Position numbers and translations under genes: made by a program | In this document: positions 10,481-51,173 of the stretch, one piece after another | Layout of the letters: every line of letters begins with the position of its first letter | Position numbering within the stretch: the first letter of the stretch is position 1 | NCBI GenBank assembly: GCA_017546145.1 | Contig: JAFYXN010000013.1 | Span: forward strand, 5,213 to 69,212 | Source: Clostridia bacterium | GTDB taxonomy: Bacteria; Bacillota; Clostridia; Monoglobales; Monoglobaceae | Length of the DNA stretch: 64,000 nt | Direction: 5' to 3' | The notes under the pieces: model-generated | Told to the model about the DNA's origin: nothing | Databases searched by the model: none | Seen by the model: only the letters and a program-made list of their open reading frames with translations

Positions 10481-10501
10481 TAAATTTGATTTTAATAAAA
10501 G

Positions 10502-10536
10502 AAAAGACTGTCTTTTTTGCAGACAGCCTTTTCTGC
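10502..10536 (+). terminator. imperfect hairpin plus TTTTCT (possibly a partial terminator)
   Basis: AAAAGACTGTCT/AGACAGCCTTTT with one mismatch. Only about 25 nt separate it from the next RBS. Confidence 0.45.
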
Positions 10537-10558
10537 CGTTTAAAAAGGAGATATATAA

Positions 10559-12196: not shown

Positions 12197-12211
12197 GAGA
12201 GGATGTATACT

Positions 12212-13948: not shown

Positions 13949-13949
13949 T

Positions 13950-14516: not shown

Positions 14517-14528
14517 GGGGTGTATAAA

Positions 14529-24722: not shown

Positions 24723-24754
24723 TGAAGTTCATCCTTTCTGTTTATGGGTTTTGT

Positions 24755-25393: not shown

Positions 25394-25406
25394 TTTTATT
25401 TTCTCC

Positions 25407-30700: not shown

Positions 30701-30928
30701 GCGTGCGATATATTCAAGAGTAAGAGGCTCCATGTACACTTTATCTGCAATAGATGTGTCGGTCATAATGGTAGCAGGGTTAGAGTTTGCAAGGACAACC
30801 TCGTAGCCCTCTTCCTTAAGTGCAAGACAAGCCTGCGTTCCTGCGTAGTCAAATTCAGCTGCCTGACCTATAACAATAGGTCCTGAACCAATGATGAGTA
30901 TTTTCTTTAAATCTGTTCTTTTTGCCAT
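27758..30928 (-). CDS. carB: carbamoyl-phosphate synthase large subunit
   Basis: 1056 aa with duplicated ATP-grasp halves (ILIIGSGPIVIGQAAEFDY.. and VVVLGAGPIRIGQGVEFDY..) and an MGS-like C-terminus. Confidence 0.95.
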   Translation of the reverse strand: MAKRTDLKKILIIGSGPIVIGQAAEFDYAGTQACLALKEEGYEVVLANSNPATIMTDTSIADKVYMEPLTLEYIARIIRYERPDAIVPGIGGQTGLNLAMQLEKKGILKECNVELLGTKSESIERAEDRELFKELCQSIGEPVIPSEITYSLEEAKAAAEKIGYPVVLRPAFTLGGTGGGFAYNEEELIEIGTNAFKLSPVSQVLIEKSVKGYKEIEFEVMRDSNDTAITICGMENIDPVGVHTGDSIVVAPILTLNDKDLKMLNDSAIKIIRELKIEGGCNVQFALNPTTSEYYLIEVNPRVSRSSALASKASGYPIARVTAKIAVGMSLEDIKIANTNAAFEPRLDYIVAKFPRFPFDKFTSANNKLGTQMKATGEVMGIGSTLEECMLKSVRSLEIGVNHLWMAKFENMSDADMIEYIKEFRDDTIYAVAQLLRRGMSVEELHNITMITPYFLESIKKITDFEQIIKANKNDAVTLKDAKTMGFSDAFIAKLWNESEIDVFAMRRKHKIMPIYKMVDTCHTGAYIPYFYSTYTGENDSKITDKKSVVVLGAGPIRIGQGVEFDYSTVHAVTTIKNSGYEAIIINNNPETVSTDYTTADKLYFEPLTTEDTMNIILFENPEGTIASLGGQTAINLAQPLTDRGVKIIGTDCEAIDRAENRDAFEKILKKLNIPQPKGKAVTKIEDGVKAAQEIGYPVLVRPSFVLGGRAMQIVANEEALRHYLKTAVEIDEDKPVLVDKYIVGKEVEIDAICDGKDVFVPGIMELVERTGVHSGDSISVYPSFSISDKVKKTILKYAKQLGLGIGIIGLYNIQFIVDKDDNVFIIEVNPRSSRTVPFLSKATGYSLADIATNVIMGKSLKSQGIKKTYPAEKDRWYVKVPVFSFNKLRGLDAYLSPEMKSTGEAIGYDDKLNRALYKALQASGMHLQNYGTVLATIADKDKEEALSLIRRFYNLGFNIQATKGTADFLKKNGIRTHALGKISEGSEEIPEAIRQGHIAYLINTSDISTNSTHDGQEIRILATENNVNLFTALDTVSVLVDVLEENTICISTIDA

Positions 30929-30946
30929 TTTCTTTTCCTCCCTGAA

Positions 30947-32209
30947 TTATTTCTGTTCCTGCCATACAATATTACCGTCACGTATGGTCATCAAACATTT
31001 TCCGAAAACCTCATAGCCTGCAAAGGGTGTGCTGCGCCCTTTGGAGAGAAAGTCGTCGGGGTTTATCTTATATTGTGTGTTCAGGTCAAAAACCGTAAGA
31101 CTTGCTTTGCAGCCTTCTTTAATTTCTGCCCCTATATTAAATCTCTTGCGCGGATTATCACACAAAAGAGCAATAAGCTTTTCAAGACTGATAATATTTG
31201 TTTTTACCAGATACGTATAAAGAATAGGAAATGCGGTTTCAATGCCTACAACTCCCATAAGACTGTCTTTAAGACCCCTGCCTTTTTCTTCGGCTGAATG
31301 CGGAGCATGGTCGGTTGCAATCATATCAATAGTACCATCGCATATACCCTCAATAAGTGCAAGTCTGTCGTCCTCACTGCGAAGAGGAGGATTCATTTTA
31401 AACCGTCCGTCTTCTTGCAAATCCTTGTCGGAAAGTACAAGGTAGTGCGGGGCGGTCTCGCATGTTACATCAAGACCTTCAGCCTTTGCCTGCCGTATAA
31501 GCTCAACGCTTTCTTTGGTTGAAATATGACATACATGGTACGCACATCCAATCTCTCTGACAAGCTCCAGGTCGCGCTTGATTGGTCCCCACTCGCTTTC
31601 AGAACAAATGCCCTTGTGGCAGTGTGCCTTTGCGTATTCTCCATCGTGAATATACCCACCTTTAAGCAGTGAATTATCCTCGCAGTGTGCTGAAATAATT
31701 TTCCCCAAACGTTTTGCCTCAATCATTGCGTTTTTCATCATTTCAGTATTTTGAACGCCGCGCCCGTCATCTGAAAAACCGGCTACATCAGCCGAAATAC
31801 CAGCCATATCCGAAAGCTCTTCACCAAGGCTTGCATTGGTTATTGCGCCAAAAGGATAAACGTCAATAACTGCTGAATTTTTGATTGAGTCAAGCTGAAT
31901 TTGAAGATTTTCTTTGCGATCGGGGGCAGGTATCAGGTTTGGCATGGAGCAAACTGTGGTATATCCGCCTCGCGCGCATGCTTTTGTGCCGCTTTCGATT
32001 GTTTCCTTATACAAAAAACCCGGCTCTCTCAGATGAACATGAACATCTGTAAAACCGGGAAAAATAAATCTATTGTTAAAAGGAATAACTGTAAAATCAG
32101 AAAAAAGAGGGGAGTATTCAAGAAACACTTTGCCGTCAGTAATGAAAATATCTCTTTTTTCAAACTTGCCGTTTGTATAAACCTGTGCATCTTTTAAAAT
32201 ACAATTCAT
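30947..32209 (-). CDS. pyrC: dihydroorotase
   Basis: FTDVHVHLREPG, SAHCED and ATDHAPH. The ATG at 32209 lies 7 nt after AAAGGA; the track start at 32326 runs into the promoter region. Confidence 0.9.
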   Translation of the reverse strand: MNCILKDAQVYTNGKFEKRDIFITDGKVFLEYSPLFSDFTVIPFNNRFIFPGFTDVHVHLREPGFLYKETIESGTKACARGGYTTVCSMPNLIPAPDRKENLQIQLDSIKNSAVIDVYPFGAITNASLGEELSDMAGISADVAGFSDDGRGVQNTEMMKNAMIEAKRLGKIISAHCEDNSLLKGGYIHDGEYAKAHCHKGICSESEWGPIKRDLELVREIGCAYHVCHISTKESVELIRQAKAEGLDVTCETAPHYLVLSDKDLQEDGRFKMNPPLRSEDDRLALIEGICDGTIDMIATDHAPHSAEEKGRGLKDSLMGVVGIETAFPILYTYLVKTNIISLEKLIALLCDNPRKRFNIGAEIKEGCKASLTVFDLNTQYKINPDDFLSKGRSTPFAGYEVFGKCLMTIRDGNIVWQEQK

Positions 32210-32237
32210 GGTAAATTCCTTTCTGACATTTTCATAT

Positions 32238-32266
32238 ATTTTACCACAAACCATGTTTTGTGTCAA
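32238..32266 (-). promoter_or_regulatory. sigma-A promoter of the pyr operon
   Basis: On the minus strand: TTGACA, 17-nt spacer, TAAAAT. This leaves a leader of only about 20 nt. Confidence 0.65.
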
Positions 32267-32307
32267 CCGTAAAATAAAAGTTTTTACATAAAAATTATTT
32301 GATTTAT

Positions 32308-32336
32308 TTGACAATAAATACTGCAAATGATATAAT
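32308..32336 (+). promoter_or_regulatory. consensus sigma-A promoter of the SGNH hydrolase gene
   Basis: TTGACA, 17-nt spacer, TATAAT. Confidence 0.7.
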
Positions 32337-33366: not shown

Positions 33367-33553
33367 TTTAAAATATACTGTCAGGGTAAAAACCCAATGA
33401 TACAAAACTGCACTTTATTTACAGGTATTATTAATCTTAACTAAAATATATAAAATTTGAAGAAAGTTTTTGCAAGAAAAATAATATAATTTTACGATTA
33501 ATAGAAGAAAATATAAATGATAAAATTACCATATATATTGGAGGTGACGGACG

Positions 33554-34411
33554 GTGAAAAGAAAGTTGTCAATAATTGTTCCTTTGCTGTGTTTATTTAT
33601 GGTTATAACCCCCTTGTATGTGTCTGCAAATATCAGGTATCATTGGGAGCAGGAGTACATTGATGAAGGGTATTCGCAGGAGGATATGTATTATCTTGCA
33701 GGTATAGTTACATATTCGAAAAATAACAGAGGTGAAAAGTATATAATTCCTGATTTTTATATGCATAATAAAGGTGATTGGGATCAAGTTTTGGAAGATA
33801 AGGAAGACCTTGGTACATGGAAAGATGTAGCTTGGTATTATTTTGTTGATTATAAAAAGCTTGAAAATTTTGTAACTGCAAGAAAGGTTATGGACGGGCT
33901 GATAACATGGAAAGAGGTTGAGGCTCAAAGAAAAGCGGAAGAAGCTGAAAAAAATAAATGGAAAAAGCGAATATTTCTTTATGTAGGCAGCAATAAGGCT
34001 ATTGTAAACGATACTGAAAAGATTATTGATGAAGAAAATCCAGATACAGTTGTGTTTACTGAAAACGACCGTTCTTATGTGCCGGTTAGATTTTTAAGTG
34101 AAGAATATGGCGGAAATGTCAATTGGAATGAAGAAATGCAGACTGTGAGTATTTCTTTTGAAGACAGAGATATATCCTTAACAGTGGGAAAACCTGAAAT
34201 TATAGTAAATGGTGAGCCTGTAGAAAATGATGTTGCACCGATTCTAAAAAATGATAGAGTTTTTCTTCCGTTACGTGCCTGTGTTAATGCTATTGGCAGA
34301 TACGTAATGTATAACAGCGGACTTATCGTTGTGGATGAAAACCTTGACATGGATTGGGAAATGAGGAACATGGAATTTGTCAAGGGATTCAGTGAAGAAC
34401 GGTTTAAATAA
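33554..34411 (+). CDS. secreted protein with a copper-amine-oxidase N-terminal (stalk) domain
   Basis: The signal peptide ends in LYVSA. The C-terminal half (YVPVRFLSEEYGGNVNWNEEMQTVSI..VFLPLRACVNAIG) is typical of the Cu_amine_oxidN1 fold. The GTG start lies behind GGAGGTG. Confidence 0.7.
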   Translation: MKRKLSIIVPLLCLFMVITPLYVSANIRYHWEQEYIDEGYSQEDMYYLAGIVTYSKNNRGEKYIIPDFYMHNKGDWDQVLEDKEDLGTWKDVAWYYFVDYKKLENFVTARKVMDGLITWKEVEAQRKAEEAEKNKWKKRIFLYVGSNKAIVNDTEKIIDEENPDTVVFTENDRSYVPVRFLSEEYGGNVNWNEEMQTVSISFEDRDISLTVGKPEIIVNGEPVENDVAPILKNDRVFLPLRACVNAIGRYVMYNSGLIVVDENLDMDWEMRNMEFVKGFSEERFK

Positions 34412-34446
34412 ACGTCAAAATATCCAAAAAAATATTGAAAAAGATA

Positions 34447-34475
34447 TTGACAATGCTGAAAAAGAGTGCTATAAT
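34447..34475 (+). promoter_or_regulatory. consensus sigma-A promoter of T-box leader 2
   Basis: TTGACA, 17-nt spacer, TATAAT. Confidence 0.75.
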
Positions 34476-34489
34476 TACTCTGTTATTTT

Positions 34490-34757
34490 TTAAAAGCTAT
34501 GACGAAGAAGGTACGAAGCGTGACGTCTTCACAGAGAGTCGGTGGGTGGTGCAAACCGATAGCGGCAGTTTCAATGTACCCCTCACTTCCGAGCTGAAGG
34601 TCAGAACACCGATATGGCAAGTAGATACCTTCCGTGAATGCTACGTTAAGTGCAAAAGGCTTGTTAGAGCCTGCAGAGCGGCGAATTTTTTCGCAATTTG
34701 AGTGGTACCGCGAGTGTTTTCACCCGTCTCAAAGCTTTTCTTTGAGACGGGTATTTT
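34490..34757 (+). promoter_or_regulatory. T-box riboswitch leader, specifier most likely CUC (Leu)
   Basis: K-turn and basal helix ATGAC-GAAG ... CTTC-CGAGC. AAGGTA forms the S-turn side, AGAGAG lies at 34533-34538, and the distal loop is GGGTGGTGCAA. CTC-A at 34582-34585 sits immediately 5' of the basal helix. The T-box sequence AATTTGAGTGGTACCGCGAG lies at 34695-34714. The terminator CCCGTCTCAAAG/CTTTGAGACGGG plus TATTTT lies at 34723-34757. Confidence 0.85.
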
Positions 34758-34799
34758 ATTATCATAATCCAATTTTTTACATAAAGACGGAGAAATAAA

Positions 34800-35468
34800 A
34801 TGAAATACAATTATAAAAGGATAACATTGCTTTCTGGTCATTACGGAAGCGGTAAGACAAATATTGCTGTAAATATGGCGTTTGACCTGAAAAAAAACTT
34901 TCACAATGTAACCATTGCTGACCTCGATATTGTAAACCCGTATTTTAGAACAAAGGACAGCCAGACCGAGCTTGAGCAGAGCGGAATAAAGCTTATATGC
35001 TCCGAGTATGCAAATTCAAACGTTGATATACCGGCACTTCCTCAGGAAATGTATTCTGTGATTGATGACAAATCCCAAAGAGCGGTTATTGATATAGGCG
35101 GTGATGACCGCGGGGCACTTGCTCTTGGAAGATATTCAAAGGGTATCATTGAAGAAAATGACTATGATATGCTATTTGTGATAAATTGCTATCGTCCATT
35201 GACTTGTGATGTCCAAACTACGCTTGAGGTCATGAGAGAAATCGAAAATGCCGGAAGGATAAAATTTACAGGAATTGTAAACAATTCAAACCTTGGCGAA
35301 GAAACAACAGCGGACGATATATTGGATTCGCTTGATTATGCATCAGATATTTCAAAAGCAACAAGACTTCCCATTGTGGCAACCTGTGTTAAAGAAGAAC
35401 TGTTTGATGTGTTGTCGGAAAGAATTTCAAATCTGTTTGCTTTAAAATTACAAAAAAAGATTATTTAA
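34800..35468 (+). CDS. P-loop NTPase (SIMIBI class, MinD/ParA/GPN-loop-like), function unknown
   Basis: 222 aa. Walker A is GHYGSGKT, followed by IADLDIVNPYF and a later DIGGDDRG. Confidence 0.6.
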   Translation: MKYNYKRITLLSGHYGSGKTNIAVNMAFDLKKNFHNVTIADLDIVNPYFRTKDSQTELEQSGIKLICSEYANSNVDIPALPQEMYSVIDDKSQRAVIDIGGDDRGALALGRYSKGIIEENDYDMLFVINCYRPLTCDVQTTLEVMREIENAGRIKFTGIVNNSNLGEETTADDILDSLDYASDISKATRLPIVATCVKEELFDVLSERISNLFALKLQKKII

Positions 35469-35484
35469 TGAAGGAGAGATAAAT

Positions 35485-35691
35485 ATGGCAAAGCTTACAT
35501 TTAAAACAGATAACTGCAAAGGCTGTGGACTTTGTGTTGACGCGTGCCCCAAGCAGGTTCTGGAACTGGCAAAAGACAAAATAAACAAAAAAGGTCATCA
35601 CCCTGTTGAAACGGTTAATCCCGATGCGTGCATCGGTTGTGCGTTTTGTGCAACAATGTGTCCCGATTGTATTATTACAGTAGAAAGGTAG
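35485..35691 (+). CDS. 2-oxoacid:ferredoxin oxidoreductase delta subunit (2x[4Fe-4S] ferredoxin)
   Basis: 68 aa. CKGCGLCVDACP and CIGCAFCATMCP. Confidence 0.9.
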   Translation: MAKLTFKTDNCKGCGLCVDACPKQVLELAKDKINKKGHHPVETVNPDACIGCAFCATMCPDCIITVER

Positions 35692-35700
35692 GAGAATATT

Positions 35701-36765
35701 ATGTCAGATAAAGTTTTGATGAAAGGCAACGAGGCAATAGCAGAAGCTGCTATTATCGCAGGATGCCGTCATTATTTCGGTTATCCCATTACACCGCAGA
35801 CAGAAATTGCGGCATATATGGCAAAAAGAATGCCCAAAATAGGAGGAACATTCCTTCAGGCTGAAAGTGAAATTGCAGCAATCAATATGGTTTATGGTGT
35901 TGCATCAACTGGTAAGAGAGTTATGACCTCTTCATCAAGCCCCGGTATTTCGCTGAAGGGTGAGGGACTTTCATATCTTGCGGGTGCAGACCTTCCGTCA
36001 CTGGTAATCAATGTTCAGCGTGGCGGCCCCGGTCTTGGCGGTATTCAGCCTTCACAGTCTGACTACTTCCAGGCAACAAAGGGAGCGGCTCATGGTGACT
36101 TCAGAATGATTGTTCTTGCGCCAAGCTCAGTTCAGGAAATGGCAGACATGACAGTTAAGGGTTTTGAACTTGCAGATAAGTACAGAATGACCGCAATGGT
36201 GCTGGCAGACGGTACAATGGGTCAGATGATGGAGCCTGTTTCTCTTGATTATAAGATTGGCGAACCCATCGAAAAGCCATGGGCAACAACAGGTACAAAA
36301 ATGGAAAGACCGCACAATATTGTAAACTCATTGTTCCTTGAACCTGATGAACTGGAAAAATCAAACTTTGCACGTTACGACAGATACAAAACAATTGAAG
36401 AAAACGAGTGCATGTATGAAGAATATATGATGGATGACGCGGAAATCTGCGTTACAGCATTTGGTATTGCGGCACGTGTTTCAAAAAATGCAATTAACGA
36501 AGCAAGAAAGCAGGGAATAAAGGTTGGTTTAATCAGACCAATAACTCTTTGGCCGTTCCCCAAAGCTCCATACATAAAGGCGACAGAAAAAGTAAAAGAA
36601 ATTATTTCTGTTGAACTTTCAATGGGTCAGATGATTGAGGATGTGCGTCTTGCATCAGAGTGCAAGGTTCCTGTTTCGCTCTGCAACCGTGTGGGTGGTA
36701 TGATTCCCTCACCTGAGCAGGTGCTTGATGCGATAAAAAATGCAGCAAAGGGAGGTAACAAATAA
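35701..36765 (+). CDS. 2-oxoacid:ferredoxin oxidoreductase alpha subunit (VorB/PorA-like)
   Basis: 354 aa. [31 protein letters not shown]. Confidence 0.85.
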
Positions 36766-37520
36766 TGGTAGTTTTTGAAAAACCAAAGGCTCTGGCAGAT
36801 GTCCAGATGCATTACTGCCCCGGCTGTACTCACGGTATTGTTCACCGTCTGGTAGCCGAGGTTATAGACGAACTCGGAATTGAGGGCAAGACAATAGGTG
36901 TTGCACCTGTTGGTTGCTCGGTTATGGCTTATAACTATTTTAATTGTGATATGATTGAAGCCGCACACGGACGTGCTCCGGCTGTTGCAACGGGTGTTAA
37001 GCGTTCAGACCCTGAAAACCACATAGTGTTTACTTATCAGGGTGATGGTGACCTTGCGTCAATTGGTATGGCAGAAACTGTTCACAGTGCGGCAAGAAAC
37101 GAAAATATTACGGTTATTTTTATCAACAATGCGATTTACGGAATGACAGGCGGTCAGATGGCTCCAACATCACTTCCGGGTCAGGTTACACAAACTTCAC
37201 CTTACGGAAGAGATACAGATGCCTGCGGTTTCCCCATAAGAGTTTGCGAAATGCTTTCAACTCTTGATGGTCCCGAATATCTTGAGCGTGTTACCGTAAA
37301 CAATGTTAAAAATGTTAAGAATGCTAAAAAGGCAATCAAAAAAGCGTTCCAGAATCAGATTGACGGCAAGGGCTTCTCACTTGTTGAGGTTGTTTCAAGC
37401 TGTCCTACAAACTGGGGCATGACACCTCAGGATGCACTGAAATGGATTGACGAAAAAATGCTTCCTTATTATCCTCTTGGTGTATATAAGGACCGCAGCG
37501 CAGAAAAGGAGGAAAAGTAA
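36765..37520 (+). CDS. 2-oxoacid:ferredoxin oxidoreductase beta subunit (TPP-binding)
   Basis: 251 aa. [23 protein letters not shown]. The stop and start overlap. Confidence 0.85.
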
Positions 37521-38053
37521 TGAGTACATCACAAATGCTTATTGCAGGTTTTGGCGGTCAGGGAATTTTGTTTGCAGGAAAGTTTCTTGCATACAAAGGC
37601 CTTGTTGAAGAAAAAGAAGTAAGCTGGCTTCCTTCTTACGGACCCGAAATGCGTGGCGGAACAGCAAGCTGCAGCGTAATCATAAGTGACGAGCCTGTTG
37701 GCTCGCCTATTGTATCAACTCCCGATGTTTTGGTAGCTATGAACTTACCTTCGCTTGATAAGTACGAGGCTACAGTTGCACCCGGCGGTAAAATTTTTGT
37801 TGATTCAACACTTATTGAGAGAAAAGTTAACCGTACAGATGTTGAGGTGTATTATATTCCTGCAACAAAGCTTGCCTCGGATAATAATATGCCAACACTT
37901 GCAAATATGATTATTGCAGGCAAAATTCTTAGTGTAACAGACGGATTTTCTGAAGATTCTGTCAACGCTGCACTTAAAAAGGTTATCTCTGCAAAACGTG
38001 CAGATATGCTTGAAACAAACCTTAAAGCTATGCAGATTGGTGCAGAAAACTAA
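37520..38053 (+). CDS. 2-oxoacid:ferredoxin oxidoreductase gamma subunit
   Basis: 177 aa. IAGFGGQGILFAGK..GPEMRGG. Confidence 0.85.
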   Translation: MSTSQMLIAGFGGQGILFAGKFLAYKGLVEEKEVSWLPSYGPEMRGGTASCSVIISDEPVGSPIVSTPDVLVAMNLPSLDKYEATVAPGGKIFVDSTLIERKVNRTDVEVYYIPATKLASDNNMPTLANMIIAGKILSVTDGFSEDSVNAALKKVISAKRADMLETNLKAMQIGAEN

Positions 38054-38074
38054 GTTTTAAAGGAGAACATAAAA

Positions 38075-39139
38075 ATGGATATAAAGATTGTTAAAACAAC
38101 AACACCAAAAGAACATCCCGAAAGCTCAACATTAGGTTTTGGTAAGTTCTTTACAGACCACATGTTTATTATGGATTATTCACGTGAAAAAGGCTGGTAC
38201 GACGCAAGAATAGTTCCTTTCGGCAGAATTGAGCTTCATCCTGCCTCAACAGTACTTCACTATGGTTCAGAAATTTTTGAAGGACTTAAGGCTTATCGCC
38301 GCGAAGACGGAACTGTTCAGATGTTCAGACCTATCGAAAATATTCGCAGAATGAACCGCAGTGCAGAAAGACTTTGCCTTCCTCAGATTGATGAGGCTAT
38401 GGCTATGGAGATTCTTGAAAAATTTGTTGCATTTGAGCAAGACTGGACACCATCTGCTCCCGGAACGTCTCTTTATTTAAGACCTTTTATGTTTGGTAAT
38501 GACGAAACACTTGGTGTTCACGCTGTTCACAATGCTACATTTATGATTATTGCATCACCGGTTGGCAGCTACTACAAAGAGGGCATTAATCCTGTTAAAA
38601 TTATGATTGAAGCAGAGGATGTACGTGCTGTCCGTGGCGGTACAGGTTATGCAAAGTGCGGCGGAAACTACGCTGCAAGCAACCGTGCCGGCGAAAAGGC
38701 TGAACAAAGCGGATATTCTCAGGTTTTGTGGCTTGATGGCCTGGAGAGAAAGTACATTGAAGAAGTTGGTGCAATGAACGTTATGTTTAAAATAAACGGC
38801 GAGATTGTTACACCGGCTCTTACGGGCTCGATTCTTCCGGGTATTACACGTATGTCTTGCCTTGAAGTATTAAGAAAAGAAGGCTACAATGTTTCAGAAA
38901 GGCTTCTCAGCATTGACGAGCTTGAAAAAGCTATGGACGACGGAACACTTGAAGAAGCTTGGGGCTGCGGCACTGCTGCAGTAATTTCACCTATCGGTGA
39001 GCTTCGTTACAAGGACAAGATTTTTGCTGTAAATAATGGTGAAATCGGTGAGGTTACTCAACATCTTTATGATACACTTACCGGAATTCAATGGGGCAAG
39101 ATTGAAGATACCTTCGGTTGGACGTATCCTTTAAAATAA
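38075..39139 (+). CDS. ilvE: branched-chain amino acid aminotransferase
   Basis: 354 aa. FGKFFTDHMF, YGSEIFEGLKAYR and GTGYAKCGGNY motifs of the long BCAT type. Confidence 0.9.
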   Translation: MDIKIVKTTTPKEHPESSTLGFGKFFTDHMFIMDYSREKGWYDARIVPFGRIELHPASTVLHYGSEIFEGLKAYRREDGTVQMFRPIENIRRMNRSAERLCLPQIDEAMAMEILEKFVAFEQDWTPSAPGTSLYLRPFMFGNDETLGVHAVHNATFMIIASPVGSYYKEGINPVKIMIEAEDVRAVRGGTGYAKCGGNYAASNRAGEKAEQSGYSQVLWLDGLERKYIEEVGAMNVMFKINGEIVTPALTGSILPGITRMSCLEVLRKEGYNVSERLLSIDELEKAMDDGTLEEAWGCGTAAVISPIGELRYKDKIFAVNNGEIGEVTQHLYDTLTGIQWGKIEDTFGWTYPLK

Positions 39140-39173
39140 GGTCTTTTATTTAGTTTATTAGGAGGAAAGAAAA

Positions 39174-40571
39174 ATGAAAAATATTAATGTGGCGGACATA
39201 ACTTTGTGTCGCAATGCATCGACACTTAGTTTTAAAGAAAAGATAGAGATTGTCAGACAGCTTGAAAAGCTTAATATAAATGCAATTGAACTACCTGCAA
39301 TTGAAAATAAAAAGACTGACATCCTATTTGTCCGTACAATTTCTTCATTTGTGCAAAACGGTATTATTTCTGTTTCAGCCGGTATGAATGCTGAAGGAGT
39401 AGAATATGCACTTGAAGCACTTTCAGCAGCAAAGCATCCGCGCGTTAGAATAGAATTGCCGGTTTCTCCTGTAGGAATGGAATATACTTGTCACAAAAAA
39501 GCACCAAAAATGCTTGAACTTATTTCAGAAATGGTTTCAAAAGCAAAGGCATCCTGCACAGACGTTGAATTCTGTGCAGTTGATGCAACGCGTGCAGAAG
39601 AACAGTTTTTGATTGATGCTGTTAAAGCTGCAATCTGTGCAGGTGTATCCTTGATAACAATATGCGACACAGCCGGCGAGATGATGCCGGATGAGTTTGC
39701 TGGATTTATTGATGACATCAAAGCAAAAGTTTCTGAACTTGATAAGGTTTCTTTGGGCGTTTCATGTGAAGATAAAAACGGCATGGCAAATGCCGCAGCA
39801 GCAATTACCGTCAGAGACAGCGCAGACACTGTAAAAACTGCTGTTTCTTCCGGAACTGTTTCTTTGGAGATTTTTGCTGAAACAATTAAAAATTGCGGAA
39901 ATAACTGCGGTCTTTCAAGTCAAATCAAATATACTGAGCTTCGTCGCATCATACGTCAGATTTCAAGAATAATTAAAATAACCGATGAAGCTGATGCTTC
40001 TGAAAAGATTGAATACACAGACAGCAATACGCTTTATCTTGATAAAAGCGATGACAGCACTGCTGTTGCCGCAATGACTCAAAAACTGGGCTATGACCTT
40101 AGCGAAGAGGATTGCGAAAAAGTCTATGAAGAGTTTAAAAAACTTACAGAAAAGAAAGAAAAGGTCGGAGCAAGAGAACTTGATGCAATAATTGCAGCGG
40201 TTGCTCTTCAAGTTCCGCCTACATATAAGCTTATAAGCTATATAATCAATACCGGCAATATTATTACTGCATCTGCTCAGGTTAAGCTGTTCAAAGCTGA
40301 CACAGGTGAGGTTGAAGGCGTTTCAATGGGTGACGGACCTATTGATGCAGCATTTCGCGCTATTGAACAGATAACAGGCTCACATTATGAGCTTGATGAT
40401 TTTCAGATTCAGTCTGTAACCGAAGGCCGGGAGGCTATGGGTTGTGCATTGGTTCGTCTTCGCGAAGGAGGACGTCTTTATTCAGGCAGCGGTATTTCTA
40501 CTGACATTGTTGGCGCAAGTATAAATGCATATCTTGGTGCCGTGAATAAAATTGTTTACGAGGAGGCATAA
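39174..40571 (+). CDS. 2-isopropylmalate synthase homolog with degenerate catalytic motifs and an intact LeuA allosteric/dimerisation domain
   Basis: The HMGL-like barrel is recognisable (DVEFCAVDATR, ITICDTAGE). However, DITLCRNAS replaces DTTLRDGEQ and VSCEDKNG replaces VHCHNDLG. The C-terminal part (SAQVKL..GDGPIDAAFRAI..QSVTEGREAMG..GSGISTDIVGASINAYL) is LeuA_dimer-like. Confidence 0.7.
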   Translation: MKNINVADITLCRNASTLSFKEKIEIVRQLEKLNINAIELPAIENKKTDILFVRTISSFVQNGIISVSAGMNAEGVEYALEALSAAKHPRVRIELPVSPVGMEYTCHKKAPKMLELISEMVSKAKASCTDVEFCAVDATRAEEQFLIDAVKAAICAGVSLITICDTAGEMMPDEFAGFIDDIKAKVSELDKVSLGVSCEDKNGMANAAAAITVRDSADTVKTAVSSGTVSLEIFAETIKNCGNNCGLSSQIKYTELRRIIRQISRIIKITDEADASEKIEYTDSNTLYLDKSDDSTAVAAMTQKLGYDLSEEDCEKVYEEFKKLTEKKEKVGARELDAIIAAVALQVPPTYKLISYIINTGNIITASAQVKLFKADTGEVEGVSMGDGPIDAAFRAIEQITGSHYELDDFQIQSVTEGREAMGCALVRLREGGRLYSGSGISTDIVGASINAYLGAVNKIVYEEA

Positions 40572-40574
40572 ATT

Positions 40575-43103
40575 ATGAAACTGTCGTTTTCAACCAAGGG
40601 ATGGCATGGCCGTTCCTTTGAGGATTTTTGCGAAATAGCAAAAGATATGAAGTTCGAGGGTATTGAACTTCATAACATATACAACCCGCTTTTTACAGAA
40701 AAGGACGGCGCGTTTTATAACTATGCAGCTGCTGCAACGGTAAGACGGCTTTATGAGCTTAAGCTGACGCTTCCTTGCATTGACACTCTTTGCGATTGTG
40801 CAGATATTTCCTCTAAGGCTAAAGCATTGGAAGAAATTAATCAATGTATAAAAATTGCAACTAATCTTCATATTCCTAACGTACGTATTCGTGCAATAGG
40901 CGAAGGCATAGAAAAACAATCAGCAATCTCTGCTGTAATGGAAATCCTTTCTGAAGTTGTGCCAAATGCAGAGTCAAACAATGTTTCCCTGCTTTTGGAA
41001 ACCTCCGGAATTTTCTGCGATACAGCGGCACTTCGTGAGGTTTTGATTGATTTTGCAAGTGACTCACTTGGTGCAATATGGGATATGTATTCACCGTATT
41101 TTACTTGTGGTGAACAACCCGAAACAACAATTACAAACTTGGGTGCGTATGTGCGCCATGTGCATATTAAGGACGCACAGCGCACTGAAAATGGCACCGA
41201 ATTTTGTCTTATGGGCGAAGGTGAGCTTCCGATAGGTGAGATGATGGCTGCACTGCGCTCGGTGAATTATGACGGATTTATCTCTCTTGAATGGCATCCG
41301 GGTTGGTGCGAAGAGCTTGATGATATGGAGATTATCTTTGCTCAGTTTGTCAATTATATGAAACAGTACAGTGACCCTGCAAAGAACACACCTGCACTAT
41401 ATTCAAATAACACACATACCGGAAAGTACGTATGGAAAAAAGACCTCTTGATTGATTGCACCTTTGGTCAGGTACTTGACCGTATGGTAGAAGAATTTCC
41501 GGACCAGTACGCTTTTAAATATACAACTCTTGATTACACAAGAACCTACAGCGAATTTCGTGATGATGTTGACGAGTTTGCGCGTGCTCTTGTTGCAATG
41601 GGTGTTAAAGCGGGCACACACGTTGCTGTTTGGGCAACAAATGTTCCCCAGTGGTACATTGCATTTTGGGCAACCACTAAAATCGGAGCCGTTTTGGTTA
41701 CTGTAAACACAGCTTATAAAATTCATGAGGCTGAGTATCTGTTTAAACAGTCAGATACACATACGCTTATTATGGTTGACAGCTATCGGGACTCAAACTA
41801 TTCGCAGATTATTGCTGAGCTTTGTCCCGAACTGGAAGATTTAAAGCCGGGACAGCAGCTTCATGCAAAACGTTTGCCATTCTTGCGCAATGTAATTACA
41901 ATTGGCTTTAAGCAAAAAGGCTGCCTTGAGTGGGAGGATGCAGTTGCGCTTTCTTCAAAGGTTCCTGTTGAAACTGTTTATCGCATGGCGGCAGCAGTTG
42001 ATAAAGATGATGTCTGCAATATGCAGTACACATCAGGTACAACAGGCTTCCCTAAAGGGGTAATGCTGACGCACTACAATGTTGTAAATAACGGAAAGTG
42101 TATTGGTGACCGTATGGATTTGTCAACAGCAGACCGAATGATGATTCAGGTGCCAATGTTTCATTGCTTTGGAATGGTGCTTGCAATGACTGCATCAATG
42201 ACTCATGGTGCAACACTTTTGCCGCTTCCGTACTTTTCACCAAAGCCTGCACTTGCGTGTATCAACCGCGAACATATTACTGCATTCCATGGCGTTCCAA
42301 CAATGTTCATAGCACTTTTGGAACACCCTGATTTTGAAAAAACAGATTTTTCTTATATGCGTACAGGAATTATGGCAGGAAGTCCTTGCCCTATTTCGGC
42401 TATGCAGGATGTTGTAAACAAAATGAATATGAAGGAAATTACCATTGTTTATGGTCAGACCGAGGCATCTCCCGGATGTACCATGAGTTCTGCTGATGAC
42501 CCGCTTGAAGTACGTGTTGCAACTGTTGGACGTGCACTTCCCGAAATTGAGTGCAAAATTGTTGACCCTGACACGGGTGAGGAATGCCCTGATGGTGTAA
42601 ACGGTGAATTTGTGGCGCGCGGATACAATATCATGAAGGGATATTACAAGATGCCCAAGGCAACAGCAGCTGCAATAGATAAAGATGGATGGCTTCATAC
42701 AGGTGACCTTGCTTGCCGTACACCTGAAGGCAATTATAAAATTACAGGACGACTTAAGGATATGATTATCCGTGGTGGTGAGAATATTTATCCCAAAGAA
42801 ATTGAGGAGTTTATTTATACTCATCCGATGGTTAGTGATGTTCAGGTTATAGGCGTTCCTGACGAACAATATGGCGAAGAAATTATGGCTTGTATTATTC
42901 TTAAAGAAGGAGAAAGCATGACCGAGCAGGAAATGAAGGAATATATTCTTGCTCACATGGCAAAGCACAAGGTTCCAAAGTATATAGACTTTGTTAAGGC
43001 ATTCCCGATGAATGCTGCAGGCAAAATCCTTAAATACAAAATGCGTGAAGATGCAGTTGTTAAACTTGGTCTTCAAAAAGCAGACAGCGTGGTGACAGCA
43101 TAA
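40575..43103 (+). CDS. fusion protein: xylose-isomerase-like TIM barrel (AP_endonuc_2) domain plus AMP-dependent acyl-CoA synthetase
   Basis: 842 aa. Residues 1 to about 270 (GIELHN..LLLETSG..HVHIKDA..ISLEWH) form the TIM barrel. Residues from about 300 to 842 carry YTSGTTGFPKGVMLTH, YGQTE, TGDLA..ITGRLKDMIIRGGENIYP and GKILK. Confidence 0.8.
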   Translation: MKLSFSTKGWHGRSFEDFCEIAKDMKFEGIELHNIYNPLFTEKDGAFYNYAAAATVRRLYELKLTLPCIDTLCDCADISSKAKALEEINQCIKIATNLHIPNVRIRAIGEGIEKQSAISAVMEILSEVVPNAESNNVSLLLETSGIFCDTAALREVLIDFASDSLGAIWDMYSPYFTCGEQPETTITNLGAYVRHVHIKDAQRTENGTEFCLMGEGELPIGEMMAALRSVNYDGFISLEWHPGWCEELDDMEIIFAQFVNYMKQYSDPAKNTPALYSNNTHTGKYVWKKDLLIDCTFGQVLDRMVEEFPDQYAFKYTTLDYTRTYSEFRDDVDEFARALVAMGVKAGTHVAVWATNVPQWYIAFWATTKIGAVLVTVNTAYKIHEAEYLFKQSDTHTLIMVDSYRDSNYSQIIAELCPELEDLKPGQQLHAKRLPFLRNVITIGFKQKGCLEWEDAVALSSKVPVETVYRMAAAVDKDDVCNMQYTSGTTGFPKGVMLTHYNVVNNGKCIGDRMDLSTADRMMIQVPMFHCFGMVLAMTASMTHGATLLPLPYFSPKPALACINREHITAFHGVPTMFIALLEHPDFEKTDFSYMRTGIMAGSPCPISAMQDVVNKMNMKEITIVYGQTEASPGCTMSSADDPLEVRVATVGRALPEIECKIVDPDTGEECPDGVNGEFVARGYNIMKGYYKMPKATAAAIDKDGWLHTGDLACRTPEGNYKITGRLKDMIIRGGENIYPKEIEEFIYTHPMVSDVQVIGVPDEQYGEEIMACIILKEGESMTEQEMKEYILAHMAKHKVPKYIDFVKAFPMNAAGKILKYKMREDAVVKLGLQKADSVVTA

Positions 43104-43906
43104 TGATAAACGGCTTTTACGTAATTGATGCGCACTGCCATATATATCCTGAAAAAATTGCATCCAAAGCTGTTGCCGCAACCGATAAATTTTATGGTTC
43201 AACTGCTTACGGTGAAGGAACAGTAAATGATTTGATGTCCTCTTATCGTGAGCTTGGTGTTGACCATGCCGTTGTTCAATCCGTTGCAACAACCCCGCAT
43301 CAGGTAAAAAGTATAAATGAATTTATTGCCAAAGAAGTAGAAGCCTCTGATGGTTTTCTTACCGGACTTGGCACACTGCATCCCGAGAGCGATGATATTT
43401 GCGGTGACATTGAGTATCTTATGGAGCTTGGACTCAAAGGGGTTAAGCTTCACCCTGATATTCAAGGGTTCAAGGTGGATACAGATAATCTTCTTAAAAT
43501 ATATGAATGTTGTGAGAAGAAGGGTCTGTCCATTTTGATGCATACAGGGGATTACAGATACGATAATTCAAACCCTAATAGAGTGTTGCCGATTTTAAAA
43601 GCATATCCAAAACTTACGGTTATTGGTGCACATTTTGGCGGTTGGTCTATATGGGAAGAAGCGTGCGAGAAATATTCAGACCTTCCTAATTTCTATGTAG
43701 ACTGTTCATCAAGCTTTGAGTTTTCAGATGAGGTTGATTTTAAGGCGCTGGTTTTGCGGTATGGAACAGACCGAGTGCTGTTTGGTACGGATTACCCCAT
43801 GTGGTCAGCCGAAAAAGAACTTAAAACCTTTTTTGCAATGAATTTGCATGATGAAGCAAATCGTTTGATTTTGAGTGAAAATGCAAAAAGAATATTTAAT
43901 ATCTGA
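43103..43906 (+). CDS. amidohydrolase-2 (PF04909-like) metal-dependent hydrolase/decarboxylase family
   Basis: 267 aa. IDAHCHI (HxH), MHTG, GAHFGG and LFGTDYP. The start overlaps the upstream stop (TAATG). Confidence 0.75.
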   Translation: MINGFYVIDAHCHIYPEKIASKAVAATDKFYGSTAYGEGTVNDLMSSYRELGVDHAVVQSVATTPHQVKSINEFIAKEVEASDGFLTGLGTLHPESDDICGDIEYLMELGLKGVKLHPDIQGFKVDTDNLLKIYECCEKKGLSILMHTGDYRYDNSNPNRVLPILKAYPKLTVIGAHFGGWSIWEEACEKYSDLPNFYVDCSSSFEFSDEVDFKALVLRYGTDRVLFGTDYPMWSAEKELKTFFAMNLHDEANRLILSENAKRIFNI

Positions 43907-43908
43907 AC

Positions 43909-43933
43909 AAAAAACAGCCTTAGGGCTGTTTTT
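43909..43933 (+). terminator. intrinsic terminator ending the T-box(Leu) operon
   Basis: AAACAGCC-TTAG-GGCTGTTT followed by TTATTTT. Confidence 0.75.
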
Positions 43934-43976
43934 ATTTTCTTATTTTGGTTAATACTGAAAATAAGGAGATGATTAA

Positions 43977-44144
43977 ATGCGGATAATAAGATATATAAAC
44001 GGAAAACGTGTCAGCAAGCCCTTTGACAACAGCATAATTGTTGATAAAAACGAAATTTCACAGGCAATAAACAGCGCAAATCGCAGATTGAGAGGCACAG
44101 ATAACAGAAATATTCATGCCAACTTTGGTTTAGAAAATGAGTAA
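43977..44144 (+). CDS. 55-aa basic protein of unknown function, translationally coupled to the recombinase (below the ORF-track cutoff)
   Basis: I translated MRIIRYINGKRVSKPFDNSIIVDKNEISQAINSANRRLRGTDNRNIHANFGLENE. AAGGAGA lies 7 nt upstream, and its last 8 nt (ATGAGTAA) overlap the recombinase start. Confidence 0.5.
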   Translation: MRIIRYINGKRVSKPFDNSIIVDKNEISQAINSANRRLRGTDNRNIHANFGLENE

Positions 44145-45492
44145 AATTGCAGCAATCTATATTCGTGTTTCAACGGATGCTCAAAGGGAAGAAGGCTATT
44201 CAATAGATGCACAAAAAGAAATGCTTACGGCATACTGTGTGTCAAAGGGAATAAAGTGTTTTGAATATTATATTGACGGTGGATTTAGCGGAAGCAATAT
44301 TGAACGTCCTGAATTGAAAAGGCTTATAGGGGATGTCAAGGAAGGAAAAATCGGATGCGTGCTTGTTTATAAGCTTGACCGTCTTTCAAGAAGTCAGAAG
44401 GACACTCTTTATTTGATTGAAGATGTGTTTAACCCGTATGATGTGGATTTTGTTTCGCTTAACGAAAGCATGGATACATCAACACCGCTTGGTAGGCTGA
44501 TGCTTGGTATACTTTCGGCATTTGCACAGCTTGAACGAGAAAACATTAAAGAACGTACAAGTATGGGTATGAAGGAAAGGGTTAAAGAAGGCTACTGGAT
44601 GGGTGGAGGCCGTGTTCCGTTTGGCTATGACTATGATTCCAAAAAGGGTATTCTTGTCCCAAACCAAGATGCCGAAACTGTACGAAAGGTCTATGAACTG
44701 TATCTCGGCGGTTATTCAACCAATGCAATTGCAAGAATGGTTGGCTTAAGCTATGAACGGCTTGCAAGACAAATTCTAAAGCGAAAAACCAACGCAGGGT
44801 TTATTGTTTATAAAGGCGAGGAGTTCTTAGGAAAGCACAAACCTATAATAAGTCTTGAAACCTATGAACGTGCTATGCAAAAAATGTCAGAACGCTCGGG
44901 CAAATTTAAAGGCGACGCCCAAAACCTTCTTACTGGATTGGTAAAATGCGGTGTTTGCGGAGCAAAGATGCGATATCATAAATGGGGAAAACAAGGCTAC
45001 AAGCTGGTTTGTTATTCAAAGGATAAAAGTAAACCGCATCTTGTAAAAGACCCTGACTGTACAAATAACGGAATTTGGGCTGATGAACTGGAAAATGTGG
45101 TAAAAGAAGACCTATTTTCATTGGGTATAAAAAGCACTAAAACAAAATTTGATAACGAAAAAAGTGTTATTGATATTTTAAAAGAAAACGAAAAAAAGCT
45201 TTCTGATAAGTTAAAGCGGCTTTATTCTCTTTATGCAGAGGCGGAGGATGAAATTCTTAAGGAGTCTATTAAAGAAATAAAGATTAATTTGGATAGTATA
45301 CAAAAGCAGATAAAACGCGAAGAAAAAGAAAGGGTTATCTCTAAAAGGAACAATGAAATAAAAAAACAACTCAGTACGCTTCGTGAAACATGGAAATATC
45401 TTACCCCAAAAGAAAAACGAAATATTATTGAAAGCTGTGTATCAGAAATTGTTGTAGCAGATGATAATGCAGAAATATACTACAAATTTTAG
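44137..45492 (+). CDS. large serine recombinase (SpoIVCA/phage-integrase type)
   Basis: 451 aa. The catalytic region is AAIYIRVSTDAQ..YKLDRLSRS. It also has a recombinase domain, a zinc ribbon (CGVCGAKM..CYS..DPDC) and a coiled-coil tail. Confidence 0.9.
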   Translation: MSKIAAIYIRVSTDAQREEGYSIDAQKEMLTAYCVSKGIKCFEYYIDGGFSGSNIERPELKRLIGDVKEGKIGCVLVYKLDRLSRSQKDTLYLIEDVFNPYDVDFVSLNESMDTSTPLGRLMLGILSAFAQLERENIKERTSMGMKERVKEGYWMGGGRVPFGYDYDSKKGILVPNQDAETVRKVYELYLGGYSTNAIARMVGLSYERLARQILKRKTNAGFIVYKGEEFLGKHKPIISLETYERAMQKMSERSGKFKGDAQNLLTGLVKCGVCGAKMRYHKWGKQGYKLVCYSKDKSKPHLVKDPDCTNNGIWADELENVVKEDLFSLGIKSTKTKFDNEKSVIDILKENEKKLSDKLKRLYSLYAEAEDEILKESIKEIKINLDSIQKQIKREEKERVISKRNNEIKKQLSTLRETWKYLTPKEKRNIIESCVSEIVVADDNAEIYYKF

Positions 45493-45493
45493 T

Positions 45494-45535
45494 TTTTCTA
45501 CATGGTACATTCATTGGCACAGCGTACGTAGAAAA
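45494..45535. repeat. att-like imperfect inverted repeat centred on the sigG breakpoint
   Basis: TTTTCTAC (45494-45501), 26-nt spacer, GTAGAAAA (45528-45535). Inner GTAC elements lie at 45505-45508 and 45524-45527. The dyad centre at 45514/45515 coincides with the last SigG-like codon. Confidence 0.6.
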
Positions 45536-45799
45536 CTTAACACCGTGAGAGGTATCAAAATTATCAAGTGCCTTAATAAGCCCGATGCAACCTACCTGAA
45601 ATAAATCGTCTATATTTTCGTTCCTGTTTGAAAATCTTTGCAGTACACTAAGTACAAGTCTTAGATTGCCGTATATAAATTCTTGACGGGCGTTTGTATC
45701 GCCCCTTTGAATTTTGGAAAAAAGCTCTTGCTTTTGAGCCTCGCTCAAAACGGGAAGCTTTGATGTGTTTACTCCGCATATATCAACTTTGTTAATCAT
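45512..45799 (-). pseudogene. sigG: 5' fragment (96 codons, regions 1.2-2.3) of sporulation sigma factor G; the 3' half is missing
   Basis: MINKVDICGVNTSKLPVLSEAQ..GNLRLVLSVLQRF..DDLFQVGCIGLIKALDNFD..VKFSTYAVPM matches B. subtilis SigG (KVEICGVDTSKLPVL..FSTYAVPMIIGEIRRYLRDN). The sequence after PM is unrelated (NVPCRKTKICS..) and stops at 45425 inside the recombinase gene. The RBS GGGGGA and an upstream GTATA-N16-GAAATAATA are intact. Confidence 0.8.
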
Positions 45800-51130: not shown

Positions 51131-51173
51131 ATTTTGAAAAGTAATTTTATTTATCAATTAGGAGATGGTTACA

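Follow-up and report, generated by a model that had tools for sequence, protein, structure and literature searches.

Organization of the operon

The DNA analyzed here is a window of 64,000 nucleotides from a member of the Monoglobaceae (Clostridia bacterium, GenBank assembly GCA_017546145.1, contig JAFYXN010000013.1, positions 5,213 to 69,212 of the forward strand), and all coordinates given for it are positions within that window. Between 34447 and 43933 it carries a promoter, a T-box riboswitch leader, nine codirectional genes, and a terminator, all on the plus strand. The genes code for a P-loop NTPase, a four-subunit 2-oxoacid:ferredoxin oxidoreductase (OFOR), the branched-chain aminotransferase IlvE, a degenerate homolog of the isopropylmalate synthase LeuA (here called pseudo-LeuA), a fusion of a TIM barrel to an acyl-coenzyme A (acyl-CoA) synthetase, and an Amidohydro_2 protein. 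The best explanation of this layout is a single transcription unit under the control of a leucine-specific T-box riboswitch.

The promoter (34447 to 34475) is of the sigma-70 type with an extended -10 element (TTGACA-17 nt-TG-TATAAT) and is the sole 12/12 match in a scan of 33400 to 45600. The T-box leader (34490 to 34752) is followed by genes for the P-loop NTPase (34800 to 35468; 222 amino acids), the delta (35485 to 35691; 68 amino acids), alpha (35701 to 36765; 354 amino acids), beta (36765 to 37520; 251 amino acids), and gamma (37520 to 38053; 177 amino acids) subunits of the OFOR, IlvE (38075 to 39139; 354 amino acids), pseudo-LeuA (39174 to 40571; 465 amino acids), the TIM/ligase fusion (40575 to 43103; 842 amino acids), and the Amidohydro_2 protein (43103 to 43906; 267 amino acids). 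The successive intergenic gaps are 16, 9, -1, -1, 21, 34, 3, and -1 nt, and an intrinsic terminator at 43910 to 43933 (stem of 10 bp followed by a U-run; -13.7 kcal/mol, z -4.8) closes the operon.

A preliminary description of the window, made from the sequence alone, had already pointed to a consensus promoter, to nine codirectional genes with overlaps or gaps of at most 35 nt ending at one terminator, and to the gene identities given above. The promoter and the layout are as described, with gaps between -1 and 34 nt, and all nine domain calls hold against Pfam and NCBIfam profiles with curated cut-offs. The same description noted that leuBCD and ilv biosynthetic genes are missing from the window, and in agreement with this the window open reading frames of at least 200 amino acids, whether scanned directly or covered by the gene tables of overlapping loci, yielded no leu or ilv biosynthetic gene.

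The T-box leader and its specifier

The leader aligns end to end with the Rfam T-box model RF00230 (model positions 1 to 219) at 34490 to 34734 with 85.5 bits and an E value of 2.8e-19. This match was recovered in an E-value scan and was missed by the default Rfam scan, which applies the gathering threshold. A Stem I covariance model of our own, built from 25 leaders and for which RNAalifold recovers the canonical structure, matches the leader with 78.4 bits (E ~1e-15). Stem I spans 34492 to 34595, and its distal elements AGAGA and GGUGGUG (canonically AGAGA / GGUGNNA) are invariant across the 25 leaders. Downstream lies the T-box sequence with its UGGU bulge (about 34696 to 34714), in which AAUUUGAGUGGUACCGCGAG is the conserved T-box sequence with a UGGN bulge, and then a terminator hairpin (34722 to 34752) of 13 bp with a U-rich tail (-28.7 kcal/mol, z -3.9). 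The T-box antiterminator and the terminator compete for the same GUCUCAAAG strand, so that the two folds are mutually exclusive. The complete T-box leader of the preliminary description is thus borne out element by element: a full-length alignment, Stem I, the T-box sequence, and the terminator/antiterminator pair are all present.

The specifier is CUC at 34582 to 34584, followed by A at 34585 and by CUUC at 34586 to 34589, which pairs with GAAG in the base helix. Compensatory changes are seen in 20 of the 24 pairs of the Stem I consensus, the base helix included, where pair 14:99 is AU in 14 leaders and GC in 10, and pair 16:97 is GC in 15 and AU in 9. Because the GAAG/CUUC helix covaries, the register of the specifier is fixed, and together with the RF00230 alignment this confirms the CUC-A specifier (34582 to 34585) that had been read by eye. 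CCC-CUC-A-CUUC is also kept in four species-level relatives of the leader.

We considered the idea that this is a decayed or misread T-box that either senses no tRNA or has a specifier other than CUC, and we regard it as extremely improbable. It draws on an Rfam score below the gathering score of 93, on the atypical S-turn motifs of the leader, and on the Rfam register being off by one for the other T-box in the window (see below). It has to contend with a full-length match at an E value of 2.8e-19, a mutually exclusive terminator/antiterminator pair, retention of CCC-CUC-A-CUUC in the four relatives, a covarying helix that sets the register, and specifiers that match their cargo across the family. 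Sister leaders at the related loci L002, L004, and L167 exceed the RF00230 gathering score (94 to 127 bits), and that at L005 is just under it (88.8 bits). We note that the sole tRNA-Leu gene in the window (908 to 994) has the anticodon CAG, and that tRNA-Leu(GAG), the expected reader of a CUC specifier, is not among the window tRNAs.

Specifiers and downstream genes in related loci

Pseudo-LeuA belongs to a large family; a scan with one genome per species found at least 580 genomes that encode a relative of it, and synteny of the loci was established by tblastn. The best 80 of these genomes are metagenome-assembled genomes (MAGs) of Oscillospirales (Acutalibacteraceae, Oscillospiraceae, and Ruminococcus sp.) sampled from the guts of ruminants, deer, hares, and humans, a habitat that is consistent with the assimilation of branched-chain acids. 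Genes for pseudo-LeuA and the TIM/ligase fusion adjoin in every locus, and the amidohydrolase gene adjoins them in 57 of 63 testable loci; the three form a fixed module, referred to here as the trio.

About a third to a half of the loci carry a full array, consisting of two further ligase genes (HTH-cupin-ligase 1 and HTH-cupin-ligase 2, where HTH is a helix-turn-helix domain), the NTPase gene, genes for OFOR delta, alpha, beta, and gamma, ilvE, a gap of ~400 nt, and the trio, and Rfam places T-boxes in the gaps of these arrays. The two additional ligases are paralogous proteins of 750 to 760 amino acids in which an MbcS-like acyl-CoA synthetase is fused to an XRE-type HTH and a cupin domain, present at L004 (1 to 9897) and about 30 other loci (for example, L019, L042, L051, L053, and L074). 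HTH-cupin-ligase 1 always lies behind an isoleucine (AUC) T-box and HTH-cupin-ligase 2 behind a valine (GUA/GUC) T-box.

The Stem I model finds 114 T-boxes in 83 sequences (the window plus 82 loci), and a downstream gene could be assigned for 110 of them. In all 110, without exception, the specifier tracks the downstream gene. The trio follows leucine specifiers (64 CUC and 4 CUG), HTH-cupin-ligase 1 follows isoleucine specifiers (14 AUC), and HTH-cupin-ligase 2, heading the NTPase-OFOR-IlvE genes, follows valine specifiers (22 GUA and 2 GUC); in the clade of the window, where the trio is fused straight behind ilvE, the NTPase-led operon follows leucine specifiers (4 CUC). A leucine T-box precedes the trio in 70 of 74 testable loci. 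Two that are without one, L019 and L030, have gaps of 124 to 131 nt between ilvE and the pseudo-LeuA gene and are the only loci whose valine leader reads GUC rather than GUA; a leucine leader before the trio was not detected in L060 and L077 either. Among distant variants, L167 has a CUG leader before the trio and an AUC leader before a single HTH-cupin-ligase gene followed by the OFOR genes, and L168 has a CUC leader before the trio alone.

What the sequences show directly is the leader with its specifier, which genes are present and in what order, and a correspondence across genomes between specifier and downstream genes. On this comparative evidence, each ligase module is marked by its T-box specifier for a single branched-chain amino acid, and gating of the shared OFOR falls to the module at the head of its genes.

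The history of the leader in the window was examined by comparing it with those in L005, L006, and L008 and with the leaders of HTH-cupin-ligase 1. Over the full leader, the sequence of the window clade is 70% identical to the isoleucine type, 64% to the valine type, and 52% to the usual leucine leaders of the trio. In the specifier region, CCC-CUC-A-CUUCCGAGC of the window and CCC-AUC-A-CUUCCGAGC of the isoleucine type are one base apart. The leader of the window clade thus looks like a natural one-base specifier switch, AUC to CUC, that accompanied an operon fusion. In the simplest history suggested by these alignments, the HTH-cupin-ligases were lost, the trio became fused behind IlvE, and the one-base switch retargeted the OFOR operon to leucine.

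Oxidoreductase, P-loop protein, and aminotransferase

Four OFOR subunits are encoded together. Alpha has POR_N and PFOR_II domains and passes the VorB model NF005507 (541.8 bits, cut-off 399); beta is thiamine pyrophosphate (TPP)-binding with a TPP_enzyme_C domain, and its subunit models match at 1e-35 to 1e-36, below their cut-offs; gamma has a POR domain and matches NF006323 with 117.7 bits, below the cut-off of 235; and delta is ferredoxin-like with two [4Fe-4S] motifs of the Fer4 families, for which OGOR, PorD, and VorD delta models score best. The nearest solved structure to alpha is the alpha subunit of a Pyrococcus furiosus 2-keto acid:ferredoxin oxidoreductase. The OFOR genes invariably come with ligases of the short branched-acid type and in most cases with ilvE, and they are gated by valine, isoleucine, or leucine T-boxes. 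The predicted preference for branched-chain 2-oxo acids or acyl-CoAs has indirect support, in T-box gating by branched-chain amino acids and in the IlvE linkage.

The OFOR might instead not be a branched-chain enzyme at all, supplying 2-oxoglutarate or pyruvate as carbon skeleton or amino acceptor for transamination while the ligase serves an unrelated acid. The best matches of delta, beta, and gamma do include 2-oxoglutarate oxidoreductase models, none of which passes its cut-off, and the nearest solved alpha subunits include 2-oxoglutarate synthases. Yet alpha clears the VorB cut-off (542 versus 399 bits) with KorA-type models far below theirs, and neither the gating by valine, isoleucine, and leucine T-boxes nor the constant linkage to branched-acid-type ligases and the usual linkage to IlvE fits such a role, which we therefore consider very unlikely.

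IlvE, of the class II type and with the class IV aminotransferase fold, passes both of its equivalog models, NF009897 (479.8 bits, cut-off 307) and TIGR01123 (399 bits, cut-off 250). The first gene of the operon codes for a divergent MinD/Mrp-like P-loop NTPase whose matches to CbiA, NUBPL, and MrpORP are weak and limited to the Walker A region; searches against solved structures gave almost no matches. The gene lies directly upstream of that for OFOR delta in all OFOR-carrying loci, and the protein probably matures or otherwise services the OFOR, by maturation or Fe-S delivery.

Acyl-CoA ligases

The fusion protein joins a xylose-isomerase-like TIM domain (AP_endonuc_2; residues 1 to about 290) to an AMP-forming acyl-CoA synthetase (about residues 292 to 842; AMP-binding, PF00501, 6e-93; AMP-binding_C, PF13193, 1e-17). 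Its translation contains the ANL core motifs YTSGTTGFPKGV, VYGQTE, HTGDL, and AAGKILK, where SGTTGxPKG, YGQTE, TGD, and a C-terminal Lys are expected.

2-Methylbutyrate and isobutyrate are the carbon skeletons of isoleucine and valine minus C1. For the ligases gated by isoleucine and valine T-boxes, the best NCBIfam match is MbcS (445 to 448 bits, below the cut-off of 850). Purified MbcS is selective for 2-methylbutyrate and isobutyrate, and isovalerate is a very poor substrate (PMC10026030). That the MbcS type barely uses isovalerate would explain why the leucine branch has a ligase of a different subfamily, which is PRK12583-like. Given the leucine T-box gating and the MbcS-like isoleucine and valine paralogous modules, we infer that the ligase half of the fusion is an isovalerate-CoA ligase. 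The HTH and cupin of the isoleucine and valine ligases form a DNA-binding/sensor extension that is unusual for a ligase and through which substrate or product might exert a further level of control.

The TIM domain has a confident AlphaFold model (pLDDT 89) that confirms its fold; Foldseek matches it only to generic sugar isomerase/epimerase folds, and sequence searches of solved structures likewise gave matches at the family level only. The window protein retains the metal site (E142, D170, H195/H197, and E239, the Glu/Asp/His/Glu set of the PF01261 type), but among the 80 relatives the metal triad, EDE here, has mostly become ENV, EQV, or EDI. Conserved catalysis by this domain is therefore unlikely, and a plausible role for it is that of a docking site or scaffold for the leucine sensor proposed below.

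Pseudo-LeuA and the Amidohydro_2 protein

Pseudo-LeuA has an HMGL-like barrel, a linker, and a LeuA_dimer domain (PF08502, E 5e-29, positions 4 to 130 of 131), and it falls under every LeuA cut-off (best model NF002086, 282.7 bits versus 532). Residues were read from an alignment to solved LeuA structures and 13 family members. DTTLRDGEQ of LeuA is DITLCRNAS, with the metal-ligand Asp gone; HCH is SCE in the window protein, with S/C/N/V and E/D/N at these positions in relatives, so that both His ligands are gone; and F-S-x-E-D is F-C-A-V-D, the catalytic Glu being replaced by Val, Ala, Ile, or Leu across the family. Judged from these residues, the protein is catalytically dead for LeuA chemistry, that is, a pseudoenzyme, and the earlier view of it as a degenerate LeuA homolog is upheld.

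In LeuA, the LeuA_dimer domain binds leucine for feedback inhibition. It is the best-conserved region of pseudo-LeuA, with 53% invariant columns in the regulatory domain and 27% in the barrel; searches of solved structures with the regulatory domain gave no matches. Because the metal ligands and the catalytic Glu are lost while the LeuA_dimer domain is strongly conserved, the protein is probably a leucine feedback sensor for the ligase. We note also that the family has four invariant cysteines in the barrel (C106, C134, C164, and C241) and two nearly invariant ones (C12 and C245), several of which appear in the alignment at positions of LeuA active-site residues; these cysteines could form a metal or Fe-S site.

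The Amidohydro_2 protein, a Pfam match, is modeled as a (beta/alpha)8 barrel (pLDDT 93.5), and its metal ligands H11, H13, H147, H177, and D230 (HxH, His, and Asp) are invariant. Its nearest structures are the uncharacterized BB4693 (TM score 0.83) and CAC3332, followed by LigW, gamma-resorcylate, and ACMSD decarboxylases (TM scores of 0.7 to 0.77), which are reversible metal-dependent decarboxylases; the solved-structure and Foldseek searches gave matches at the family level only. By its model and conserved ligands, it looks like an active metalloenzyme with an auxiliary role. We tested across the relatives whether loss of the TIM metal site is coupled to loss of the amidohydrolase, and rejected such a coupling.

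A candidate route from isovalerate to leucine

T-boxes switch on genes that relieve a shortage of the cognate amino acid when its tRNA is uncharged, AMP-forming ligases serve acid activation and not ATP-conserving fermentation, and OFORs are reversible. These properties, together with the known reductive carboxylation of ruminococci, argue for the biosynthetic direction. The best-supported reading of the comparative evidence, and one that we think probable, is that ligase, OFOR, and IlvE convert isovalerate to leucine and are induced by uncharged tRNA-Leu. Uncharged tRNA-Leu(GAG) would allow the leader to form the antiterminator, and all nine genes would be transcribed. The AMP-forming ligase half would convert isovalerate to isovaleryl-CoA, the VorB-type OFOR, acting in the synthase direction, would use reduced ferredoxin and CO2 to make 4-methyl-2-oxopentanoate, and IlvE would transaminate this to leucine. 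The P-loop protein would service the OFOR, pseudo-LeuA would sense leucine for the ligase, and the TIM domain would dock the sensor. This reading gains support because three ligase modules sit behind isoleucine, valine, and leucine specifiers in 110 of 110 cases, and because a VorB-type OFOR and IlvE share the same array and the isoleucine and valine ligases are MbcS-like. Which acids are used, which way the flux runs, and what each of the four accessory parts does are inferred.

Several observations weigh against it. The branched-chain specificity of the OFOR is predicted from the name of a family model, the ligase matches only a broad subfamily (PRK12583-like, 697 bits versus a cut-off of 832), and the leader, as described above, scores 85.5 bits against a gathering score of 93 and has atypical S-turn motifs. 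In most relatives, the OFOR and IlvE genes lie behind a valine (or isoleucine) T-box and not a leucine one, and it is not obvious that leucine starvation alone would induce them in such valine- or isoleucine-led loci. The conserved metal ligands of the Amidohydro_2 protein and the adjacency of its gene to that of the ligase mean that the leucine branch may include chemistry outside the three-step scheme. Finally, genuine metY and metA genes, above their model cut-offs, follow the amidohydrolase gene in 16 loci, which the scheme does not account for.

These metY (O-acetylhomoserine sulfhydrylase) and metA (homoserine O-acetyltransferase) genes are found at L002 (14688 to 16968), L011, L014 to L017, L020, L022, L024, L031, L040, L046, L056, L058, L071, and L080, with a gap of only 4 to 6 nt in about half of the 16, and they seem to sit within the leucine T-box transcription unit. 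They occur again beside the OFOR genes in the distant variant L167 (19272 to 21197), there without a riboswitch of their own. Rfam scans of L002 and L167 detected neither an S-adenosylmethionine riboswitch nor a methionine T-box. A methionine link through carboxylation of 3-methylthiopropionate was considered for the metY/metA loci and rejected, all of their leaders carrying CUC.

The direction of flux could in principle be the reverse, with leucine oxidized by way of its 2-oxo acid to isovaleryl-CoA, as a source of energy or of primers for branched lipids, and with the T-box being incidental. OFORs of this kind are best known from amino acid fermentation, reportedly in Clostridium sporogenes and as the archaeal VOR. 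Induction by uncharged tRNA is the opposite of a catabolic need, however; the operon has an AMP-forming ligase and not a phosphotransacylase/kinase, CoA-transferase, or ADP-forming synthetase, and the specifier fits the ligase type in all 110 assigned cases. An oxidative role is accordingly hard to credit.

More weight attaches to the idea that the leucine module does not perform a simple ligation of isovalerate. The TIM domain, the Amidohydro_2 protein, and perhaps the LeuA-like barrel would then start from some other gut metabolite, such as a C5/C6 acid bearing a hydroxyl group, a double bond, or an extra carboxyl group, and convert it to isovaleryl-CoA or to the 2-oxo acid of leucine, with the same regulation and the same end product. 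The three extra parts are confined to the leucine branch, whereas the isoleucine and valine branches have one ligase each; the Amidohydro_2 protein retains HxH, His, and Asp and groups structurally with reversible metal-dependent decarboxylases, the window TIM domain keeps its E/D/H/E metal set, and Cys106, Cys134, Cys164, and Cys241 of pseudo-LeuA are invariant. Set against these points, most family members have lost the TIM metal triad irrespective of the presence of the Amidohydro_2 protein, the Amidohydro_2 gene is not next to its trio partners in 6 of 63 loci nor in L167 and L168, pseudo-LeuA is without every residue required for LeuA-type chemistry, the neighborhood has no conserved reductase or dehydratase that could act as a partner, and the fold searches gave only family-level matches. 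We view such additional steps as unlikely, albeit the most serious competitor of the direct route from isovalerate. The preliminary description had found no obvious place in a three-step scheme for the three extra proteins, and this stands in a refined form, the LeuA homolog being catalytically dead and the TIM domain so in most relatives. A specific version, in which hydroxymethylglutarate or methylglutaconate is converted to isovaleryl-CoA, was entertained as the principal explanation and dropped: the catalytic residues of pseudo-LeuA are lost, the TIM metal site is mostly lost, and no conserved reductase lies nearby.

Relation to known systems

Leucine-specific T-boxes are described on the ilv-leu operon of Bacillus and other Firmicutes and on leuA of Geobacter (PMC2700814). 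The window leader resembles these in mechanism and cargo purpose, with transcription attenuation, uncharged tRNA-Leu(GAG) read through a CUC-type specifier, genes for leucine supply, and the same Stem I, T-box sequence, and terminator/antiterminator; it differs in its cargo, since in place of leuABCD or ilv genes it controls those for IlvE, for a ferredoxin-dependent 2-oxoacid oxidoreductase, and for an acyl-CoA ligase. The OFOR shares with VOR (VorABCD of Thermococcales and methanogens) its delta, alpha, beta, and gamma subunits and its TPP and Fe-S domains. Unlike the characterized VORs, which have been studied mainly in the oxidative direction, its T-box context implies the synthase direction, and a dedicated P-loop NTPase gene always precedes that for delta.

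The isoleucine and valine ligases are akin to the methylbutyryl-CoA synthetase MbcS of Staphylococcus aureus, whose selectivity matches their T-box specifiers. They differ from it by their N-terminal HTH and cupin, the window ligase differs by being PRK12583-like with a TIM-barrel extension, and MbcS feeds fatty acid synthesis and not amino acid synthesis. Pseudo-LeuA has the HMGL-like barrel, linker, and LeuA_dimer domain in the same order as LeuA, with the ligands and the catalytic Glu replaced.

Rumen Ruminococcus reportedly make leucine, valine, and isoleucine from isovalerate, isobutyrate, and 2-methylbutyrate, as described by Allison, Bryant, and coworkers in the 1960s. The chemistry predicted here is the same, as is the habitat (rumen and hindgut Oscillospirales MAGs), but that work defined labeling and growth requirements and not genes. 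The need of rumen and gut fiber degraders for branched-chain volatile fatty acids has been known for 60 years, and these acids are sold as feed additives; to our knowledge, and as far as literature searches show, the genes for their assimilation have not been pinned down. T-boxes, VOR-type OFORs, IlvE, MbcS-type ligases, and the physiology of reductive carboxylation are each already known. In full-text literature searches we found no description of T-box-gated ligase/OFOR operons, of an isoleucine/valine/leucine specifier triad, or of a pseudo-LeuA module.

The locus and its relatives offer testable candidates, with one ligase per acid, a shared oxidoreductase, an aminotransferase, and an RNA switch that reports the amino acid served, and the related genomes point to candidate genes for the valine and isoleucine versions as well. 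Known T-box cargo would be extended to ferredoxin-dependent carboxylation, and a biosynthetic enzyme, LeuA, has apparently been reduced to an allosteric domain. We put forward, tentatively and as a possibility that is less likely than not, that Oscillospirales rebuild amino acids from fermentation acids by a modular system in which each module is addressed by a T-box. Ligase modules for isoleucine, valine, and leucine and an indolepyruvate:ferredoxin oxidoreductase (IOR) module for tyrosine (see below) would plug into ferredoxin-dependent oxidoreductases, the OFOR operon would be retargeted by single-base specifier switches, and a dead isopropylmalate synthase would be the leucine sensor of a ligase with a degenerate TIM barrel as its docking domain. 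If true, sensing by pseudo-LeuA would introduce a novel form of pseudoenzyme-based allosteric control.

Neighboring genes and a second T-box operon

Directly after the operon terminator lies a gene for a large serine recombinase (44137 to 45492, plus strand; Resolvase, Recombinase, and Zn_ribbon_recom domains), beside which a small sigma-70 region-2 protein is encoded on the minus strand (45425 to 45799). In three loci, L006 among them, the operon is followed at this position by a neighbor of similar size (454 versus 451 amino acids), and the recombinase region may be a mobile-element boundary. A glutamate dehydrogenase gene (51165 to 52529) lies 7 kb downstream of the operon and could supply the amino donor for IlvE, proximity being the sole link. 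Upstream, a block on the minus strand (23811 to 32326) codes for aspartate carbamoyltransferase, a phosphoribosyltransferase, OMP decarboxylase, dihydroorotate dehydrogenase B and its electron-transfer subunit, the large subunit of carbamoyl-phosphate synthase, and dihydroorotase; it is a complete and ordinary set for pyrimidine biosynthesis with no relation to the leucine operon.

The window contains a second T-box leader at 8622 to 8874 (RF00230, 112 bits), heading an operon (8622 to 15833) of five genes that code for an SSF sodium:solute symporter, an AMP-forming ligase, IorA, IorB, and a PaaK-like ligase. IorA and IorB, the subunits of IOR, are both above their NCBIfam cut-offs. The Rfam register and that of our own model gave ACC (threonine) as the specifier, which was rejected by comparison with relatives of this leader; these have GAA-UAC-A beside a covarying helix, which gives the specifier as UAC (tyrosine). 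The gene content suggests a route from 4-hydroxyphenylacetate to tyrosine by reductive carboxylation, in which acid, CoA, CO2, and reduced ferredoxin would yield the 2-oxo acid. A table of regulatory elements predicted for amino acids and cofactors in Geobacter places iorAB-paaK clusters with a conserved 5' element under tryptophan (PMC2700814). The window operon likewise joins IorA, IorB, and a PaaK-like ligase behind an amino acid-linked leader, but this leader is a T-box with a tyrosine specifier, and the operon adds a sodium:solute symporter and a second ligase.

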